Source: Escherichia phage UFV-AREG1
Strand: one strand, 5' to 3'
Sequence record: KX009778
Length of the DNA: 64,000 nt
Part shown: positions 30,011 through 51,701 of the stretch, piece by piece
Layout of the letters: each line of letters opens with the position of its first letter
Numbering within the stretch: position 1 is the first letter of the stretch
Translations under genes and position numbers: made by a program
The notes under the pieces: generated by a model
Databases searched by the model: none
What the model saw: only the letters and a program-made list of their open reading frames with translations
What the model was told of the DNA's origin: nothing

Positions 30011-30484
30011 TTATTTGAATGATTTAACGTACTGAATAGAACCTTTACTATTCACAAAGGCAATTTTACCATTTTTGTTATACATGGTAGCAGTACGCTG
30101 ATAGCCATAAGTTTGTTTACCAGATTGATAACCAACTAATGCGAAATTATCTTCACCCATTTTATTCTGTTTAGCGCGAATACGTTCATGGCCATGTGCC
30201 ATAAGAACCTTAGCATCACCAGTTGCAATGGATCGACGAGTTTTTTCATCTTCAACTGTATTAACAAAATCGTCAAATGAATCAAATTTAGCATGAGATT
30301 TATTATACAGTTTTCCATCTACTGCATAATTATATCCTTGTACATCCATCTCAACTTCTGTACCATCATCCAATACAGCAGTGATTTTCTGACCTTTTTT
30401 AAATTTCAAAAGATCAGTAAAAGATTCAGCAATAATTTGAGAATTAATAGCTGCTTCAGTGATAAATTCTTGATATGTTTTCAT
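30011..30484 (-). CDS. Head internal protein candidate with capsid-targeting sequence (ipIII position)
   Basis: N-terminus MKTYQEFITEA matches T4 internal-protein CTS cleaved by prohead protease; located just downstream of e on the minus strand as in T4; body unlike recalled T4 IPIII. Confidence 0.7.
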   Translation of the reverse strand: MKTYQEFITEAAINSQIIAESFTDLLKFKKGQKITAVLDDGTEVEMDVQGYNYAVDGKLYNKSHAKFDSFDDFVNTVEDEKTRRSIATGDAKVLMAHGHERIRAKQNKMGEDNFALVGYQSGKQTYGYQRTATMYNKNGKIAFVNSKGSIQYVKSFK

Positions 30485-30572: not shown

Positions 30573-31541
<969 letters not shown>

Positions 31542-33780: not shown

Positions 33781-34044
33781 TTATTTCATATTATTGAAAT
33801 ATTCTTCTGCGATTTCGTCGTTATCATGGTAAACTTTAGAAGACAGTTTAACATAACCTTCTGCCGTGAACATATTAATCACAACCTTTACAGTATACCA
33901 CTGACCATCTTCATTACCCATTACTGCGTAAGTTTCAAACATCGGATGATCAGGACCGATAACTTTAATATCATTCACTGTACGACCAAAATCTTCTGAA
34001 ACACATTTCATAAAGAAGTTGAACAGTTCTCCGTAATTATCCAT
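33781..34044 (-). CDS. hypothetical protein (88 aa)
   Basis: ORF 33781..34176 trimmed to Met MDNYGELFNFF downstream of early promoter and GGAGAA SD. Confidence 0.55.
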   Translation of the reverse strand: MDNYGELFNFFMKCVSEDFGRTVNDIKVIGPDHPMFETYAVMGNEDGQWYTVKVVINMFTAEGYVKLSSKVYHDNDEIAEEYFNNMK

Positions 34045-34086: not shown

Positions 34087-34118
34087 GTATAGTACCATGG
34101 AAGAATAGGGATGTAAAC
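34087..34118 (-). promoter_or_regulatory. Early promoter within conserved promoter-stem-loop unit
   Basis: Minus strand GTTTAC-18nt-TACTATAC and conserved leader. Confidence 0.6.
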
Positions 34119-34256
34119 AGTTTTGTGAAAAATTTTTTAAAAAGTTTTGGGGGAATTCTAGGGCAGGGAGGGGCAATTAAAGGATAGGATAATATATTAT
34201 AAAGGATAGAAACTAAATGATGCCTAGAGAGGCCCGGAAAGGCCTAGATACCAAAA

Positions 34257-34280
34257 AGCCCCAACCTTTTGGTCGGGGCT
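34257..34280 (-). terminator. Hairpin terminator downstream of CTS gene; copy 1 of flanking repeat
   Basis: 10-bp stem AGCCCCAACC/GGTCGGGGCT with 4-nt loop and T-run; near-identical copy at 34812..34835. Confidence 0.6.
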
Positions 34281-34287
34281 AAGAATG

Positions 34288-34761
34288 TTATTTGATTTGT
34301 TTAGCAGACCAAATGCGGTCTTTAATAATTTTTTGGATGTCTTCAATATACTCAAGAGAGTGAGCATGTGGGTTATCTTTGAAACTATAAGCACGAGCTA
34401 GCTTTTGGCCTTCAGTTTTGATTACTAAAAGCTCTTTAAGGATAGCTTCATATTTGGAGATAATTCCTTTAACGATATTTTTCTCTTGTGTGACTTTAGG
34501 ATCTGCTTTAGGAGCAGGTTTACCTGAAGCCTTTGCAAAAGCAGCGCCAGTAGCAACTAAACTTTTCCAGGCCATACTAACAGCATTCCCCGTAAATCCT
34601 TCTGCTTTCATGTCGCGAGCAAATTGGAATCGTGATTCATCAGAAGCATCTTTATAAGAATATTTACCCGCGGCAATGGCAGCTTTTGCAACAGCTTGAA
34701 TTTCAGTGCTAGATGCTTCATTTAACACCGCTTCATTTAAAAATTGAGCATATGATTTCAT
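34288..34761 (-). CDS. Head internal protein candidate with CTS-like N-terminus
   Basis: N-terminus MKSYAQFLNEA resembles internal-protein CTS; perfect late promoter TATAAATA 37 nt upstream; Ala/Lys-rich body. Confidence 0.65.
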   Translation of the reverse strand: MKSYAQFLNEAVLNEASSTEIQAVAKAAIAAGKYSYKDASDESRFQFARDMKAEGFTGNAVSMAWKSLVATGAAFAKASGKPAPKADPKVTQEKNIVKGIISKYEAILKELLVIKTEGQKLARAYSFKDNPHAHSLEYIEDIQKIIKDRIWSAKQIK

Positions 34762-34797
34762 CTTATTTCCTGTTTTAATTCGTGGTTTTAATATACT

Positions 34798-34805
34798 TAT
34801 TTATA
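34798..34805 (-). promoter_or_regulatory. Late promoter (TATAAATA) for CTS gene 34288..34761
   Basis: Exact TATAAATA on minus strand 37 nt upstream of ATG, immediately after terminator hairpin. Confidence 0.65.
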
Positions 34806-34811
34806 CTAAAA

Positions 34812-34835
34812 AGCCCCAACCTTTCGGTCGGGGCT
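34812..34835 (-). terminator. Hairpin terminator upstream of CTS gene; copy 2 of flanking repeat
   Basis: Same 10-bp stem sequence with loop TTTC and T-run, followed by late promoter. Confidence 0.6.
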
Positions 34836-34887
34836 AAGCCTTGCGGCAACCTTGTCGGGGTTCCACCTGCTAAGGCAAGTGTTTGTA

Positions 34888-35043
34888 CGAAACGCCGGGA
34901 TTCGAACCCGGTTATTAAGCAGTTGACGCTACTCAATATTTTTAAAAGGCCATATCTCGACCATATCCGAACGTTCCGTCAAAAACGCTACTCGGCTTAT
35001 GGCAAAGATATTTCCTCGAATCGATAATTCGGTGCGCCGTTTC
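34888..35043 (-). ncRNA. tRNA-like structured stable RNA (possible homologue of T4 species 1/2 RNA)
   Basis: Minus strand has tRNA-like T-arm CCGGGTTCGAATCCCGG followed by CGTTTCG that can pair with GAAACG about 150 nt upstream; no anticodon arm recognised; boundaries approximate. Confidence 0.35.
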
Positions 35044-35122
35044 TGCTGTGATGTAAGAGGGCATCAATAAACGCAAAGATTATTAACGCAATTCCTTACT
35101 CAGGGAACATCAGTCCGACGAC

Positions 35123-35677
35123 TTACCGGTAGCGACCCGGTTTCTCATTTGGTATTTCAAATTGTGTAGATTTAGTATCTAATTTTTTAACTATGGAACT
35201 TATGTCATGAAAGAAAAACCATTCGCCATTTATATGGTCCTGATTATAAATGCTGTGCATATATTTTTCAAGTTCTACTGCATCCTGGGAATATCTAAAT
35301 GATACTATTTTAAAACTTTTAAACGGTGAAAATGTATTTGCTGTTATAACTCTAACATCAGGTTCTATACTTCTTCCTATTTTATAATAATTAGGATTTG
35401 TAGTATCTACCATTATGTATACGAAAGCCTGTCGATAGCTTTTTTCTATATCAAATTCATCTTTAAATTTCAAAAGATTTAGGGCGGCAGTCCTACAAAA
35501 TACTTTCCATTTTGACAAGCGTTTAGCTTTAGTCATAGAAAAGAATTTTTTCTTATCTGTTATTTTAAGAAAAGCAACATTTTCAATTAGTTCTTGTGTT
35601 ATTTCAAAATTACCATGGTATATTAATCCAGCTTTTATAGCCAAATTAATTTGGTCCCAGTCTACATCACTTCTCAT
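35123..35677 (-). CDS. T5orf172/GIY-YIG-like domain protein inside the RNA gene cluster
   Basis: 184-aa ORF; VYIMVDTTNPNYYKIGRSIEPDVR resembles GIY-YIG-related T5orf172 signature. Confidence 0.55.
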   Translation of the reverse strand: MRSDVDWDQINLAIKAGLIYHGNFEITQELIENVAFLKITDKKKFFSMTKAKRLSKWKVFCRTAALNLLKFKDEFDIEKSYRQAFVYIMVDTTNPNYYKIGRSIEPDVRVITANTFSPFKSFKIVSFRYSQDAVELEKYMHSIYNQDHINGEWFFFHDISSIVKKLDTKSTQFEIPNEKPGRYR

Positions 35678-35698: not shown

Positions 35699-35775
35699 TG
35701 GCCAGGGTGAAAGGATTCTAACCTTTAACCTGCGGTTTAGAGGACCGCTACTCTATACAATTGAGTTACACCCCG
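35699..35775 (-). tRNA. tRNA-Arg (anticodon UCU), CCA encoded
   Basis: Hand-folded cloverleaf: acceptor CGGGGTG/CACCCTG, D-stem ACTC/GAGT, anticodon stem GCGGT/ACCGC with loop CCUCUAA, T-arm AAAGG-TTAGAAT-CCTTT; position 33 is C, which is atypical. Confidence 0.6.
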
Positions 35776-35901
35776 TAATTAGTTCACAGCAATACCTACT
35801 CCAACAATCAAGATGTCTTCACACGAAATTAAGAGAAAAGTGATCAGTTCAACCCTTATAATCGCGTCAAGTAGATATTAATGTGACAACTGTCACAAGT
35901 T

Positions 35902-35976
35902 TGGCGGACATGCATGGATTCGAACCATGGACCAATTGATTAACAGTCAACTGCTCTACCACTGAGCTACACATCC
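35902..35976 (-). tRNA. tRNA-Asn (anticodon GUU), CCA encoded
   Basis: Hand-folded: GGATGTG acceptor, TAGCTCAGTGGTAGAGC D-arm, anticodon loop CUGUUAA, T-loop GGTTCGAATCC. Confidence 0.7.
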
Positions 35977-35980
35977 AAAT

Positions 35981-36067
35981 TGGTGGGGAGTGATGGAGTC
36001 GAACCACCCGAGTCGCAATGACAATGGATTTACAGTCCACACCGCTACCTCTACGGGATAACTCCCC
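35981..36067 (-). tRNA. tRNA-Tyr (anticodon GUA), long variable arm, CCA encoded
   Basis: Hand-folded: anticodon arm GTGGA-CUGUAAA-TCCAT, 87 nt with long variable arm typical of bacterial tRNA-Tyr. Confidence 0.65.
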
Positions 36068-36076
36068 AAATTAATT

Positions 36077-36153
36077 TGGTGACCCAGACCAGATTTGAAC
36101 TGGTAACCTTTCCCTTATGAGGGGACTGCTGCTAACCATTGAGCTACAGGGCC
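36077..36153 (-). tRNA. tRNA with CAU anticodon (Ile2 or Met), CCA encoded
   Basis: Hand-folded: acceptor GGCCCTG, anticodon loop CUCAUAA, T-arm ACCAG-TTCAAAT-CTGGT. Confidence 0.65.
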
Positions 36154-36154
36154 T

Positions 36155-36230
36155 TGGTGCTGATTGACGGAATCGAACCGCCGACATCCTCATTACAAGT
36201 GAGGTGCTCTACCTACTGAGCTAAATCAGC
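36155..36230 (-). tRNA. tRNA-Thr (anticodon UGU), CCA encoded
   Basis: Minus strand GCTGATTTAGCTCAGTAGGTAGAGCACCTCACTTGTAATGAGG...GGTTCGATTCC...CACCA; matches recalled T4 tRNA-Thr. Confidence 0.85.
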
Positions 36231-36232
36231 AA

Positions 36233-36319
36233 CGGAGGCGATAGGATTTGAACCTATGAGTCGCCGGAGCGACTGCCGGTTTTCAAGACCGGTGCATTAA
36301 ACCACTCTGCCACGCCTCC
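36233..36319 (-). tRNA. tRNA-Ser (anticodon UGA), type II, CCA not encoded
   Basis: Hand-folded: acceptor GGAGGCG, anticodon arm CCGGT-CUUGAAA-ACCGG, long variable arm, T-loop GGTTCAAATCC. Confidence 0.8.
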
Positions 36320-36321
36320 AG

Positions 36322-36395
36322 TCTCCATACAAGGATTTGAACCTTGGACCTCCTGATCCCAAATCAGGCGCTCTACCAAACTGAGCTACACGGAG
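36322..36395 (-). tRNA. tRNA-Pro (anticodon UGG), CCA not encoded
   Basis: Hand-folded: CTCCGTG acceptor, D-arm TAGCTCAGTTTGGTAGAGC, anticodon loop UUUGGGA, T-loop GGTTCAAATCC. Confidence 0.8.
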
Positions 36396-36405
36396 TAAAT
36401 TAAAT

Positions 36406-36479
<74 letters not shown>

Positions 36480-36485
36480 AAACTT

Positions 36486-36572
36486 TGGTACGAGAAGTGG
36501 GACTCGAACCCACAAGGAAATCATTCCGCAGCATTTTAAGTGCTGTGCCTTTACCAATTTGACCATTCTCGC
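36486..36572 (-). tRNA. tRNA-Leu (anticodon UAA), type II, CCA encoded
   Basis: Hand-folded: GCGAGAA acceptor, anticodon arm CAGCA-CUUAAAA-TGCTG, long variable arm, T-loop GGGTTCGAGTCCC. Confidence 0.8.
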
Positions 36573-36573
36573 G

Positions 36574-36646
36574 CTGGGAATAAAGGACTCGAACCTTTGC
36601 ATCTAGCAGTCAAAGTGCTATGCCTTACCAACTTGGCTAATTCCCA
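36574..36646 (-). tRNA. tRNA-Gln (anticodon UUG), CCA not encoded
   Basis: Hand-folded: TGGGAAT/ATTCCCA acceptor, anticodon arm TAGCA-CUUUGAC-TGCTA, T-loop AAAGGTTCGAGTCCTTT; abuts tRNA-Leu with 1-nt spacer. Confidence 0.8.
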
Positions 36647-37033: not shown

Positions 37034-37423
37034 TCAGCCTTCATCAACAATAGTATGAGTGTGGGCATTTACAATTTGCCACCAATCAAAGCGATTATAA
37101 CCATACATCGGTTTGTTTTCATTTTCTTTGATAATATCACGGAGTTCATCTTCGGTAGCGGCTTTCGCGATTAAATCAGCATATCCACCACGAGGATAAT
37201 AATTATCACCTGCAAAAAGTAAAAAGTTCGGTTTAATATTATTGAACTCTTCAAGAGTAATAACTTTTCCTGTCGGTTGAACAATCTCTACATATTTATA
37301 TCCTAATTTTTGAGCAGCATCTACTGCTTCAAGCAAAGTATCATGAGCCCATCCAATTTGACAACCTGGCTTTTCAGATGGATTAGCCTGATAATCCGCG
37401 TACACTTTATACATTCTATTCAC
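37034..37423 (-). CDS. hypothetical protein (129 aa)
   Basis: ORF track. Confidence 0.6.
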   Translation of the reverse strand: MNRMYKVYADYQANPSEKPGCQIGWAHDTLLEAVDAAQKLGYKYVEIVQPTGKVITLEEFNNIKPNFLLFAGDNYYPRGGYADLIAKAATEDELRDIIKENENKPMYGYNRFDWWQIVNAHTHTIVDEG

Positions 37424-37662: not shown

Positions 37663-37887
37663 TTATTCAACGCCAGCGGCTTTCAAAAGTTTTTTAAGAT
37701 TGGCAACACCTTGAGCAGAAAATGTGACCTTGCCACCTTTTTCACTGATAGAACCAACCAATTTAGCAAGTTTATCATTAGGAATTTTTTTAAAATCAGC
37801 CAATGTTCCATCAAAGGTTTTTGAAACAAAAGGCAGTTCGTCTTCGCGTCTTTTAGCTTCTACAATAAATTCTTGATATGTTTTCAT
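37663..37887 (-). CDS. Head internal protein candidate with CTS (74 aa)
   Basis: N-terminus MKTYQEFIVEA; own early promoter-stem-loop upstream. Confidence 0.65.
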   Translation of the reverse strand: MKTYQEFIVEAKRREDELPFVSKTFDGTLADFKKIPNDKLAKLVGSISEKGGKVTFSAQGVANLKKLLKAAGVE

Positions 37888-37915
37888 TTTATTCTCCTCA
37901 GTAGTTGATAGGGTA

Positions 37916-37945
37916 ATAGTATCACTACCCCATCTAAAAGTAAAC
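37916..37945 (-). promoter_or_regulatory. Early promoter-stem-loop unit (IP locus)
   Basis: GTTTAC-18nt-TACTAT with flanking inverted repeat. Confidence 0.6.
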
Positions 37946-37955
37946 GGTTTATAAA

Positions 37956-38264
37956 CTATTTTATTCCGCGTGATGCAATTGTGTTCTGCCGTTTAACGCC
38001 AGTTTGTTTAAAGTCATGATTGTCGATTTGATCGGTACGAGCAACTCCGAATGATGATTTGATCTTAGCTTTAGATCCTTTAGTTATAGAAATAAACATC
38101 TCGGAAGCCCCTTTCTTAAAGTCCGAAGCGATTACTTCAACGCCGTTCTTAGCAAGTGACTTCAGAATTGCCTCTGCATACTCATCGTCAAGACTCGTCT
38201 GAGTATTAATAACGAATGTCTTTGGCGCAGCCGCTTCATTGATAAATTCTTTGAAAGTTTTCAT
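37956..38264 (-). CDS. Head internal protein candidate with CTS (102 aa)
   Basis: N-terminus MKTFKEFINEA; own early promoter-stem-loop upstream. Confidence 0.65.
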   Translation of the reverse strand: MKTFKEFINEAAAPKTFVINTQTSLDDEYAEAILKSLAKNGVEVIASDFKKGASEMFISITKGSKAKIKSSFGVARTDQIDNHDFKQTGVKRQNTIASRGIK

Positions 38265-38294
38265 TTTATTTTCCTAATTAAGTTTGATGAGATA

Positions 38295-38324
38295 ATAGTA
38301 TCACAACCCTATTTAAAAGTAAAC
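38295..38324 (-). promoter_or_regulatory. Early promoter-stem-loop unit (IP locus)
   Basis: GTTTAC-18nt-TACTAT. Confidence 0.6.
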
Positions 38325-38597
38325 TCATTTTAAATAAATTGCGTATTTTTTATAACCCGCTGACTCATGACGAAGACCCTTATCATTAGCAAAACGCTCA
38401 ATGTTGTTAATTTGATTCTGGTCAAGTTCAGAGATGTCAAACACGAAAAAGTTACGTTTGTTACCAACTGTTACATAGTCAGTTAAATCAATATCATATA
38501 GGTAATTGATGTCAGCAATCAAAGTCTTGACAGCTTTGCTAATTTTTACTTTTTCGTTAAAAGTAGCTTCATTGATAAATTCTTGATATGTTTTCAT
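38325..38597 (-). CDS. Head internal protein candidate with CTS (90 aa)
   Basis: N-terminus MKTYQEFINEA; own early promoter-stem-loop upstream. Confidence 0.65.
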   Translation of the reverse strand: MKTYQEFINEATFNEKVKISKAVKTLIADINYLYDIDLTDYVTVGNKRNFFVFDISELDQNQINNIERFANDKGLRHESAGYKKYAIYLK

Positions 38598-51662: not shown

Positions 51663-51667
51663 ATTAA

Positions 51668-51686
51668 GGGAGCCCATGGGCTCCCT
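51668..51686 (+). terminator. Rho-independent terminator after gene 8
   Basis: Perfect 8-bp stem GGGAGCCC-atg-GGGCTCCC followed by TTTTTCTTT. Confidence 0.7.
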
Positions 51687-51693
51687 TTTTCTT

Positions 51694-51701
51694 TATAAAT
51701 A
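51694..51701 (+). promoter_or_regulatory. Late promoter (TATAAATA) for gene 9
   Basis: Exact TATAAATA 25 nt upstream of gene 9 ATG, right after terminator hairpin. Confidence 0.7.

Follow-up and report, generated by a model that had tools for sequence, protein, structure and literature searches.

The window analysed here is a 64,000 nt stretch of Escherichia phage UFV-AREG1 (KX009778), a Tequatrovirus, and it contains a 157-aa ORF enclosed by two near-identical hairpins. All features of this cassette, namely the ORF, its promoter and both hairpins, are read on the minus strand (Table 1). Along the gene strand the order is a ten-tRNA cluster, a 184-aa ORF, rnaD, rnaC, the first hairpin, the late promoter word TATAAATA, the Shine-Dalgarno sequence AGGAAA, the 157-aa ORF, the second hairpin and e.8. 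The region is 96-98% identical to other Tequatroviruses, and alignment with T4 shows that the slot corresponds to the rnaC–e.8 interval, which is neither of the two classical internal-protein (IP) loci. Identity with the ipI locus was considered, and was dropped after the T4 alignment had placed the slot between rnaC and e.8. An Rfam scan of 30-40 kb returned tRNAs and nothing else. Two plus-strand ORFs (34285-34401 and 34418-34657) were rejected: both are short and lack conservation, and they run antisense to a gene that is under purifying selection.

Table 1. Features in and around the rnaC–e.8 slot of the window, in gene-strand order
Feature	Position	Strand	Remarks
Ten-tRNA cluster	36646..35699	-	
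184-aa ORF, T5orf172/MUG113-type, GIY-YIG-like (endonuclease-like)	35677..35123	-	About 0.3 kb upstream of the cassette
rnaD (species 2 stable RNA) homolog, in the upstream tRNA transcription unit	35031..35148	-	118/119 nt identical to T4 rnaD
rnaC (species 1 stable RNA) homolog, left border of the slot	34886..35024	-	136/139 nt identical to T4 rnaC; T4 annotation
Upstream 36 nt repeat copy	34803..34838	-	Hairpin 34835..34812, loop GAAA, T5 at 34811..34807
T4-type late promoter box TATAAATA	34798..34805	-	Exact match
Shine-Dalgarno AGGAAA	34766..34771	-	4 nt before the ATG; from sequence, aggaaa conserved in relatives
157-aa ORF ('family A', phrog_2280), ortholog of RB32ORF133c and fD1 g140	34288..34761	-	
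Codons 1-10, MKSYAQFLNE, CTS-like propeptide with L-x-E cleavage motif	34732..34761	-	
Downstream 36 nt repeat copy	34248..34283	-	Hairpin 34280..34257, loop AAAA, T5 at 34256..34252
Early-type promoter of the e.8 homolog	about 34117..34089	-	
e.8 homolog, 87 aa (MDNYGELF...), right border of the slot	33781..34044	-	

The flanking hairpins and the promoter box

The first-pass annotation had described 24-bp hairpins at 34257..34280 and 34812..34835 that differ in the loop only, and this description holds. The hairpins are embedded in a repeat that is longer than first described, extending over 36 nt with 34 of the 36 positions identical between the copies. One of the two mismatches lies in the loop and the other beyond the T-run in the 3′ direction of the gene strand, where the upstream copy reads TTTTTAGTAT and the downstream copy TTTTTGGTAT. 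The upstream hairpin reads AGCCCCGACC-GAAA-GGTTGGGGCT followed by TTTTT (34835..34807), and the downstream hairpin reads AGCCCCGACC-AAAA-GGTTGGGGCT, again followed by TTTTT (34280..34252). Each comprises a 10-bp stem with seven G-C pairs, a 4 nt loop and a T5 tract, and was scored as terminator-like, with predicted folding energies of -20.3 kcal/mol (upstream) and -19.5 kcal/mol (downstream). When a 31 nt pattern of the repeat was searched for with up to three mismatches, two sites were found in the 64 kb, both of them the cassette flanks, and 0 of 100 shuffles matched.

Both copies show the GC-rich hairpin and the U-run on the transcribed strand by which rho-independent terminators are recognized. 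The downstream copy is annotated as a terminator in phages KAW1E185 and fPS-90, and the same hairpin is located 3′ of rnaC in T4. The downstream stem of KAW1E185 carries a compensatory substitution that keeps the pairing, which argues for selection on the hairpin structure itself. Judged by sequence, both hairpins are predicted to be primarily transcription terminators, the upstream one putatively ending the tRNA/rnaD/rnaC transcript.

The late promoter sequence that had been claimed for the ORF is present as an exact TATAAATA at 34805..34798 on the minus strand, 36 nt upstream of the ATG. T4 late promoters consist of this word at about -10, upstream of a late gene and without a -35 element, and the box at 34805..34798 conforms to that definition as a sequence. 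Because the word is not enriched across the window (13 found versus 10.35 expected), its weight lies in its position, which is kept at nine of the 11 orthologous loci, the other two reading AATAAATA. The annotation of fPS-90 has a 'predicted late promoter' at this site. A search of the minus strand between 34762 and 34840 gave no match to a sigma-70-type promoter.

The 157-aa product as a probable internal protein

The first-pass annotation had also singled out the ORF for its MKSYAQFLNEA start and its Ala/Lys-rich body. The ORF does begin MKSYAQFLNEAVLNEA..., its 157 residues include 16.6% Ala and 13.4% Lys, and its product is identical to YP_009281471. Over 13 distinct alleles dN/dS ranged from 0.04 to 0.29, with 0.29 in the first 16 codons and 0.04 in the C-domain, low values that mark a real gene under purifying selection. 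By their N-domain the 13 alleles form three classes, all with nearly the same C-terminal domain. In an AF2 model built from an eight-sequence alignment (pLDDT 76), the N-domain is predicted to have three helices and to be followed by a disordered Pro/Lys/Ala linker and, at the C terminus, by a long helical hairpin.

The N terminus, MKSYAQFLNE/A, contains Y4, F7, L8 and E10, which are the published determinants of the capsid targeting sequence (CTS) and of gp21 cleavage. Mapping of the IPIII CTS assigned residues 4 and 7 to targeting, and residues 8 and 10 to processing by gp21 after L/I-x-E (PMC9026906). A second LNE/A at residues 13-15 has its source in a 15 nt duplication (34715-34740), and in some family A alleles the stretch FLMTE departs from L-x-E at positions 8-10. 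A six-frame scan of the 64 kb for the CTS motif found five ORFs, the four besides the 157-aa ORF being located at the classical IP loci of the window, namely an Ip4-like gene (30011-30484) and a tandem of three genes (37663-38597). The mature product has a predicted mass of 15.5-16 kDa and a pI of 9.5, like T4 IPII and IPIII, and the absence of the gene from T4, T2 and PST indicates that it is dispensable. The protein is small, basic, non-essential and variable between close relatives and has the CTS residues at positions 4, 7, 8 and 10, as is typical of IPs, and it is encoded outside the ipI and ipII/ipIII loci.

Relatives from Klebsiella, Yersinia and unassigned T4-like phages differ in the C-domain but share the CTS-like beginning, the linker and the N-domain (AGKYSY...AWKS). 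The 205-aa protein of the Dhakavirus JS98 is a weak full-length relative, with 26% identity and a pairwise E of 8e-9. An exhaustive HMM search of 1.84 billion proteins yielded 13 cluster representatives; those examined are short CTS-type proteins and those that could be placed belong to T4-like phages, so that no cellular homolog hints at the target of the protein. The start M-x-x-[FY]-x-x-F-[LV]-x-E occurs in all but one of the distant homologs examined. Two of the placed representatives have tRNA genes upstream and a terminator at their end. In searches for a function by homology, Pfam, NCBIfam and PADLOC gave no match, and PHROGs returned a family of 'unknown function' only. A PDB profile search with the 157-aa protein found nothing at E<=1, and Foldseek comparison of the AF2 model with PDB and BFVD recovered self-family hits or noise only. 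In all records examined, the ORF and its slot-mates are annotated as 'hypothetical protein'.

Detection of the product in virions was a point on which the first-pass annotation had staked its reading. In phage fD1 (= phiD1) the 157-aa ortholog g140 (67942-68415), labelled 'no similar protein in T4', is listed as phage-particle-associated (PPAP) at a strict LC-MS/MS threshold, and its neighbours g138 and g139 (e.8) are not so marked (PMC8309999 Table S3). As 113 of the 277 fD1 proteins were scored as virion-associated, non-structural ones among them (PMC8309999), this detection is supportive rather than decisive. Taken with the CTS-like start, it makes the 157-aa ORF a probable precursor of an internal, head-packaged protein.

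It is unlikely that the product, rather than being injected, acts in the cytoplasm late in infection, or as an accessory of the prohead core or scaffold which is then degraded or lost, and that its detection by mass spectrometry reflects carry-over. Such carry-over is conceivable in a virion preparation in which half of the fD1 proteome was detected, yet g140 exceeded the strict threshold that g138 and g139 did not. Scaffold-like proteins are likewise brought to mind by the Ala/Lys richness and the long modelled helical hairpin, but the four mapped CTS determinants are all present, their conservation reaches much further than that of the remaining protein, and the product is basic and dispensable, as known IPs are. 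Also in favour of this alternative, the other four CTS genes of the window each lie behind an early-type promoter motif, whereas the 157-aa gene has a late promoter only.

Slot states and mosaic breakpoints

The survey of relatives rests on the GenBank phage collection, searched by BLAST with the empty T4 slot, and on how far the joined pieces reached in 60 evenly sampled records. Among these, 8 were empty, 18 had the 157-aa gene only (A only) and 4 had a different ORF only (B only), and a further 9 had flanks too far apart to join, three of which were confirmed to carry A and B. The corresponding size classes were empty, an excess of about 555 nt (A), an excess of about 680 nt, and unjoined flanks. 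The whole collection contains family A in about 500 records, family B in 165, a 205-aa family in 139 and the flanks in about 770; IMG/VR contributed 10 related loci only.

The slot is empty in Ec3-ASingh, and also in T4, T2, RB3, Sf24, ACG-C40, SHFML-11 and PST, where a single hairpin joins the loop and 5′ side of the upstream copy in the window to the 3′ side of the downstream copy; PST was annotated by the laboratory that defined IP cassettes. In T4 it measures 266 nt and holds a single hairpin and no gene. The A-only state is seen in the window, KAW1E185, RB32, phiD1 and L005, and the B-only state, with a 187-aa CTS ORF beginning MKTYAEFLTEA, in WL-3. A and B stand in tandem in ZN18/L006, L013, fPS-90, L14 and the Mosigviruses phiE142 and Bas46. 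The Dhakaviruses JS98 and IME281 have a 184-aa membrane ORF together with a 205-aa CTS ORF beginning MKTYNEFLNESVLNEA, and the Dhakaviruses L010 and QL01 combine A with the 184-aa membrane ORF. These states are interleaved among phages with similar flank identity. Invariance of the gene and its flanks across relatives, which the first-pass annotation had named as a refutation, is thus not seen, the slot showing empty, A, B, A+B and Dhakavirus arrangements.

In the Tequatroviruses every junction falls directly after GGGGCTTTTT, continuing as AGTATAAATA where A comes next, as AGTTTGAATCAC where B does and as GGTATCTAGGCC where e.8 does. Cassette B terminates in a different hairpin, so the same repeat is not used at every junction. 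The single hairpin of T4 combines the GAAA loop and 5′ flank of the upstream copy in the window with the 3′ flank (GGTATCTAAGCC..., GGTATCTAAGCCTTTCC...) of the downstream copy, which is exactly what a crossover between the two repeats would yield. An allele mosaic is seen in L004, which is 95-100% identical to the window through rnaC and the upstream hairpin, and 47-87% identical from the promoter through most of the ORF, with the break just after the upstream hairpin. Identity then returns to 100% at the downstream hairpin and is 80-100%, mostly 92-100%, from there through e.8. The hairpin copies within one genome are more alike than the copies of other genera (AGCCCCGACC.. in Tequatrovirus versus GGCCCTTCC.. 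in Dhakavirus), which is consistent with copies that still recombine or convert each other; the Dhakavirus repeat takes in TATAAATA.

Homologs keep one syntenic slot downstream of the tRNA cluster, also in distant genera. The filled slot is thus probably ancestral, and the empty state of T4 is more likely to have arisen by deletion between the repeats than the state of the window by insertion. T4 has been shown experimentally to delete and amplify segments through repeats of 6-10 bp (PMC9391042). Hopping of the cassette between loci was considered and set aside, as the homologs examined were all located downstream of the tRNA cluster. The word 'cassette' here stands for presence or absence and allele exchange at a fixed locus, with no movement between loci, and we infer that the exchange proceeds by homologous recombination and not by transposition. 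The first-pass annotation needed correction with respect to the strand, which is minus, the locus, which is a third one, and the nature of the hairpins, which are best regarded as terminators; deletion is the likelier direction of change and exchange takes place at a fixed locus.

Homing endonucleases of the neighbourhood (SegB in T4-type phages, the ORF at 35123-35677 in the window) might have been the main force spreading the gene, by co-conversion of flanking DNA after cutting a co-infecting genome, with the repeats being incidental, and we regard this as improbable. The endonuclease-like ORF lies 0.3 kb upstream, and in KAW1E185, fPS-90, RB32 and T4 the tRNA cluster includes endonuclease genes. 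SegB is reported to drive the preferential inheritance of this region (PMC2330249, as cited in PMC4122927), but T4 and PST both have segB and an empty slot. Moreover, identity breaks at the hairpin and does not trail off from an endonuclease site, and co-conversion would account for spread but not for precise excision products. Co-conversion by endonucleases is possibly a helper of the exchange rather than an alternative to it.

Very improbable, finally, is a fixed accessory gene between two ordinary terminators whose likeness reflects a single duplication or terminator constraint and has no part in gain or loss: the hairpins are plausible functional terminators, with selection on structure visible in KAW1E185 and a syntenic position shared across genera, yet the T4 hairpin is precisely a hybrid of both copies, all four A/B combinations exist with junctions at the T-run and are interleaved at similar flank identity, the copies co-vary within genomes, and the 64 kb hold no third terminator like these two.

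A putative late cassette and its relation to known systems

We consider it likely that the locus is a self-contained late unit, composed of terminator, TATAAATA, ribosome-binding site, gene and terminator, which encodes a CTS-bearing internal protein and occupies a polymorphic, recombining slot. The upstream hairpin would halt the transcript of the tRNA operon, and a late promoter of the gp55 type would drive a monocistronic mRNA of about 0.5 kb that ends at the second hairpin. The MKSYAQFLNE decapeptide would act as the capsid targeting sequence that brings the 157-aa precursor into the prohead core, where the gp21 protease may cut after Glu10 (L-x-E), and possibly after Glu15, and what stays in the head would be a basic helical protein of about 16 kDa. 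Host defences encounter internal proteins before any other phage molecule. Injected together with the DNA, the mature protein would, by analogy with T4 Ip1-3, most likely disarm one such defence. T4-type homologous recombination between the 34/36 repeats could loop the gene out and leave a single hybrid hairpin, and in mixed infections crossovers in the hairpins or in the conserved flanks could restore the gene, another allele or other cargo.

The closest parallel is provided by the IP cassettes of the T-even phages. In 1994 two polymorphic IP loci with conserved flanking promoter and stem-loop elements were reported (Repoila et al., EMBO J 13:4181, as summarised in PMC2839356), and the same summary mentions more than 30 IP variants. 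In summaries of the work of Repoila, Tetart, Bouet & Krisch (PMC2839356, PMC3012670, PMC12373910), these proteins are, like the one described here, small, basic, dispensable and equipped with a CTS of the form MK(T/S)Y..F(I/L).E. The parallel extends to the variation in content between close relatives, the short conserved repeats with promoter and stem-loop, and the shuffling, which is attributed to homologous recombination. Each of Ip1, Ip2 and Ip3 blocks its own GmrSD type IV restriction enzyme (PMC12373910). Unlike the classical cassettes, the slot described here is a third locus, rnaC–e.8, which is empty in T4 and has no IP label in the records examined. Its repeat consists of a strong GC-rich intrinsic terminator and a late promoter, whereas the repeats at the IP loci of the window carry early-type promoters (GTTTAC..TACTAT) and IP-locus stem-loops are, in the summary given by PMC2839356, weaker and AT-rich.

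PeSL cassettes, in which terminator and promoter repeats serve as recombination joints (Arbiol 2010, PMC2839356; Comeau 2014, PMC4122927), resemble the slot in other ways. In the pairs RB49/phi1, PST/T4 and nt-1/KVP40 a terminator-plus-promoter motif flanks single ORFans, an ORF with two motifs in one phage corresponds to a single motif in its relative, and crossovers lie within or next to the stem-loop. The slot shares with PeSLs a stable terminator-like stem-loop (about -20 kcal/mol, predicted) and motifs that mark the boundaries of indels and replacements. PeSLs differ in having sigma-70-like early promoters and in forming a dispersed multi-copy family of about 100 bp in hyperplastic regions. 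Neither an early promoter in the repeat nor a dispersed multi-copy family is found at the slot, where the promoter is the late TATAAATA, the shared unit is 29-38 nt long and 64 kb contain two copies (<=3 mismatches). Lambdoid 'morons' are likewise autonomous promoter-gene-terminator units between two other units, but are thought to originate by illegitimate recombination without conserved flanking repeats (as outlined in PMC2839356), whereas the flanks supply homology here.

The most direct precedent is the record of RB32ORF133c (NC_008515), an ortholog that fills the same slot and is likewise 474 nt long, which was noted in the 2006 annotation as 'flanked by 34 bp imperfect direct repeat'. 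That record describes a hypothetical protein only, and mentions neither a CTS, nor virion association, nor polymorphism of the slot. A literature search for RB32ORF133c and for the N-terminal peptide, which did not extend to Repoila 1994 and Comeau 2007, found nothing relevant and no paper that names the ORF or its slot-mates, and Petrov 2010 makes no mention of IPs. The first-pass reading of a swappable internal-protein cassette is supported by the slot polymorphism, the L004 mosaic and the CTS start, and its principle was already known. What is new is accordingly modest: an unannotated third IP-type locus and its protein family, added to a cassette principle and a flanking repeat that had been described before.

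Family A, with about 500 coliphage records, and the two further CTS families at the same slot (165 and 139 records) represent candidate injected anti-defence proteins, and phages of the empty, A, B and A+B states offer natural, isogenic-like comparisons for host range. The hybrid hairpin of T4 is a textbook case of duplicated terminators acting as recombination joints for gene gain and loss, and would carry the PeSL idea beyond early transcription units to late ones. More tentatively, and with less confidence than in the late unit itself, rnaC–e.8 might be viewed as a third IP locus of the Tevenvirinae, housing an old two-domain family of injected proteins whose allele classes are directed against different first-line defences, and which T4 lost by recombination between twin terminators. 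Additional GmrSD enzymes, or other variants of type IV restriction, are examples of the defences envisaged there. The two-domain layout would comprise the CTS, a variable helical N-domain with AWKS, a Pro/Lys linker and interchangeable C-terminal coiled-coil domains.

Variation within the rnaC/e.8 slot

Among the relatives compared, the slot between rnaC and e.8, which in the window holds the 157-aa family A gene with its capsid-targeting-sequence (CTS)-like start, varies both in its flanking hairpins and in its cargo. The downstream hairpin of KAW1E185 (L002, 3255-3276) reads GCCCCAACC-TTTC-GGTTGGGGC. The loop is thus GAAA in reverse complement and the stem has A-T in place of the G.T pair, so that the structure is preserved while the sequence drifts or flips. 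In JS98 (loci L009 and L011), as in the loci L010 and L012, the slot is occupied by the gene for a 184-aa predicted membrane protein (MKLLKYLSW...) that lacks a CTS and is preceded by the same unit of hairpin and late promoter box, TATAAATA, as family A; the joint is therefore not specific for internal-protein cargo.

Within the family A gene, the LNEA codons are duplicated by a short direct repeat, and the allele class of the window therefore has two potential cleavage sites (E10 and E15) for the prohead protease gp21. The remaining family A allele classes have a single potential gp21 site, or an atypical FLMTE.

Features of the window discussed in the text, with coordinates and strand
Feature	Position	Strand	Remarks
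Ip4-like gene, 157 aa	30011-30484	-	CTS-type ORF, downstream of e
Two exact TATAAATA boxes, 13 nt apart	31081-31101	-	directly upstream of lysozyme gene e (30573-31067)
Direct repeat GCTTCATTTAA (+ strand), 11 nt exact, spacing 15 nt	34715-34740		within family A gene
T5orf172/MUG113 (GIY-YIG-related) ORF, 184 aa	35123-35677	-	domain hits
trna.3-like protein	37034-37423		N-terminal parent of P0028
Three tandem CTS-type genes (74, 102 and 90 aa)	37663-38597	-	ipI locus
Second terminator-then-late-promoter composite: GGGAGCCCATGGGCTCCC, T-run, TATAAATA	about 51665-51701	+

Apparent deletion and insertion in the tRNA region

A Logan contig of 2.9 kb encodes P0028, a 94-aa chimera in which a trna.3-like N-terminal part is joined to the last 30 residues of the family A gene product (junction ...IIKE|NPHAHSLEY...). 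Such a fusion implies that about 2.7 kb were lost in a natural deletion, and with them the entire tRNA cluster.

The T5orf172/MUG113 ORF lies between the genes for tRNA-Arg and rnaD and extends at its 3′ end into rnaD, of which it covers the first ~26 nt. The T4 genome has rnaD directly adjoining tRNA-Arg, with segB elsewhere within the tRNA cluster; the ORF looks like a homing-endonuclease-like insertion different from that of T4. In the record of ESCO10 (L021, OM386655), the T5orf172 ORF is labelled 'head vertex protein' and the e.8 homologue 'RNA ligase 2', because product names there are out of register; this is an annotation artefact and the names should be disregarded.

Other CTS-type ORFs and late promoters

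Besides the family A gene, the window contains four CTS-type ORFs. At the ipI locus, all three tandem genes have upstream of them an early-type promoter motif of 35-45 nt (GTTTAC..TGATACTATTA..CTATCAACTACTGAGGAGAATAAA), which is nearly identical from gene to gene. In the RB32 annotation, the counterparts are described as flanked by a 43-bp direct repeat. The second terminator-promoter composite is unrelated in sequence to the hairpins flanking the family A gene, and an ATG lies about 24 nt downstream of its promoter box.
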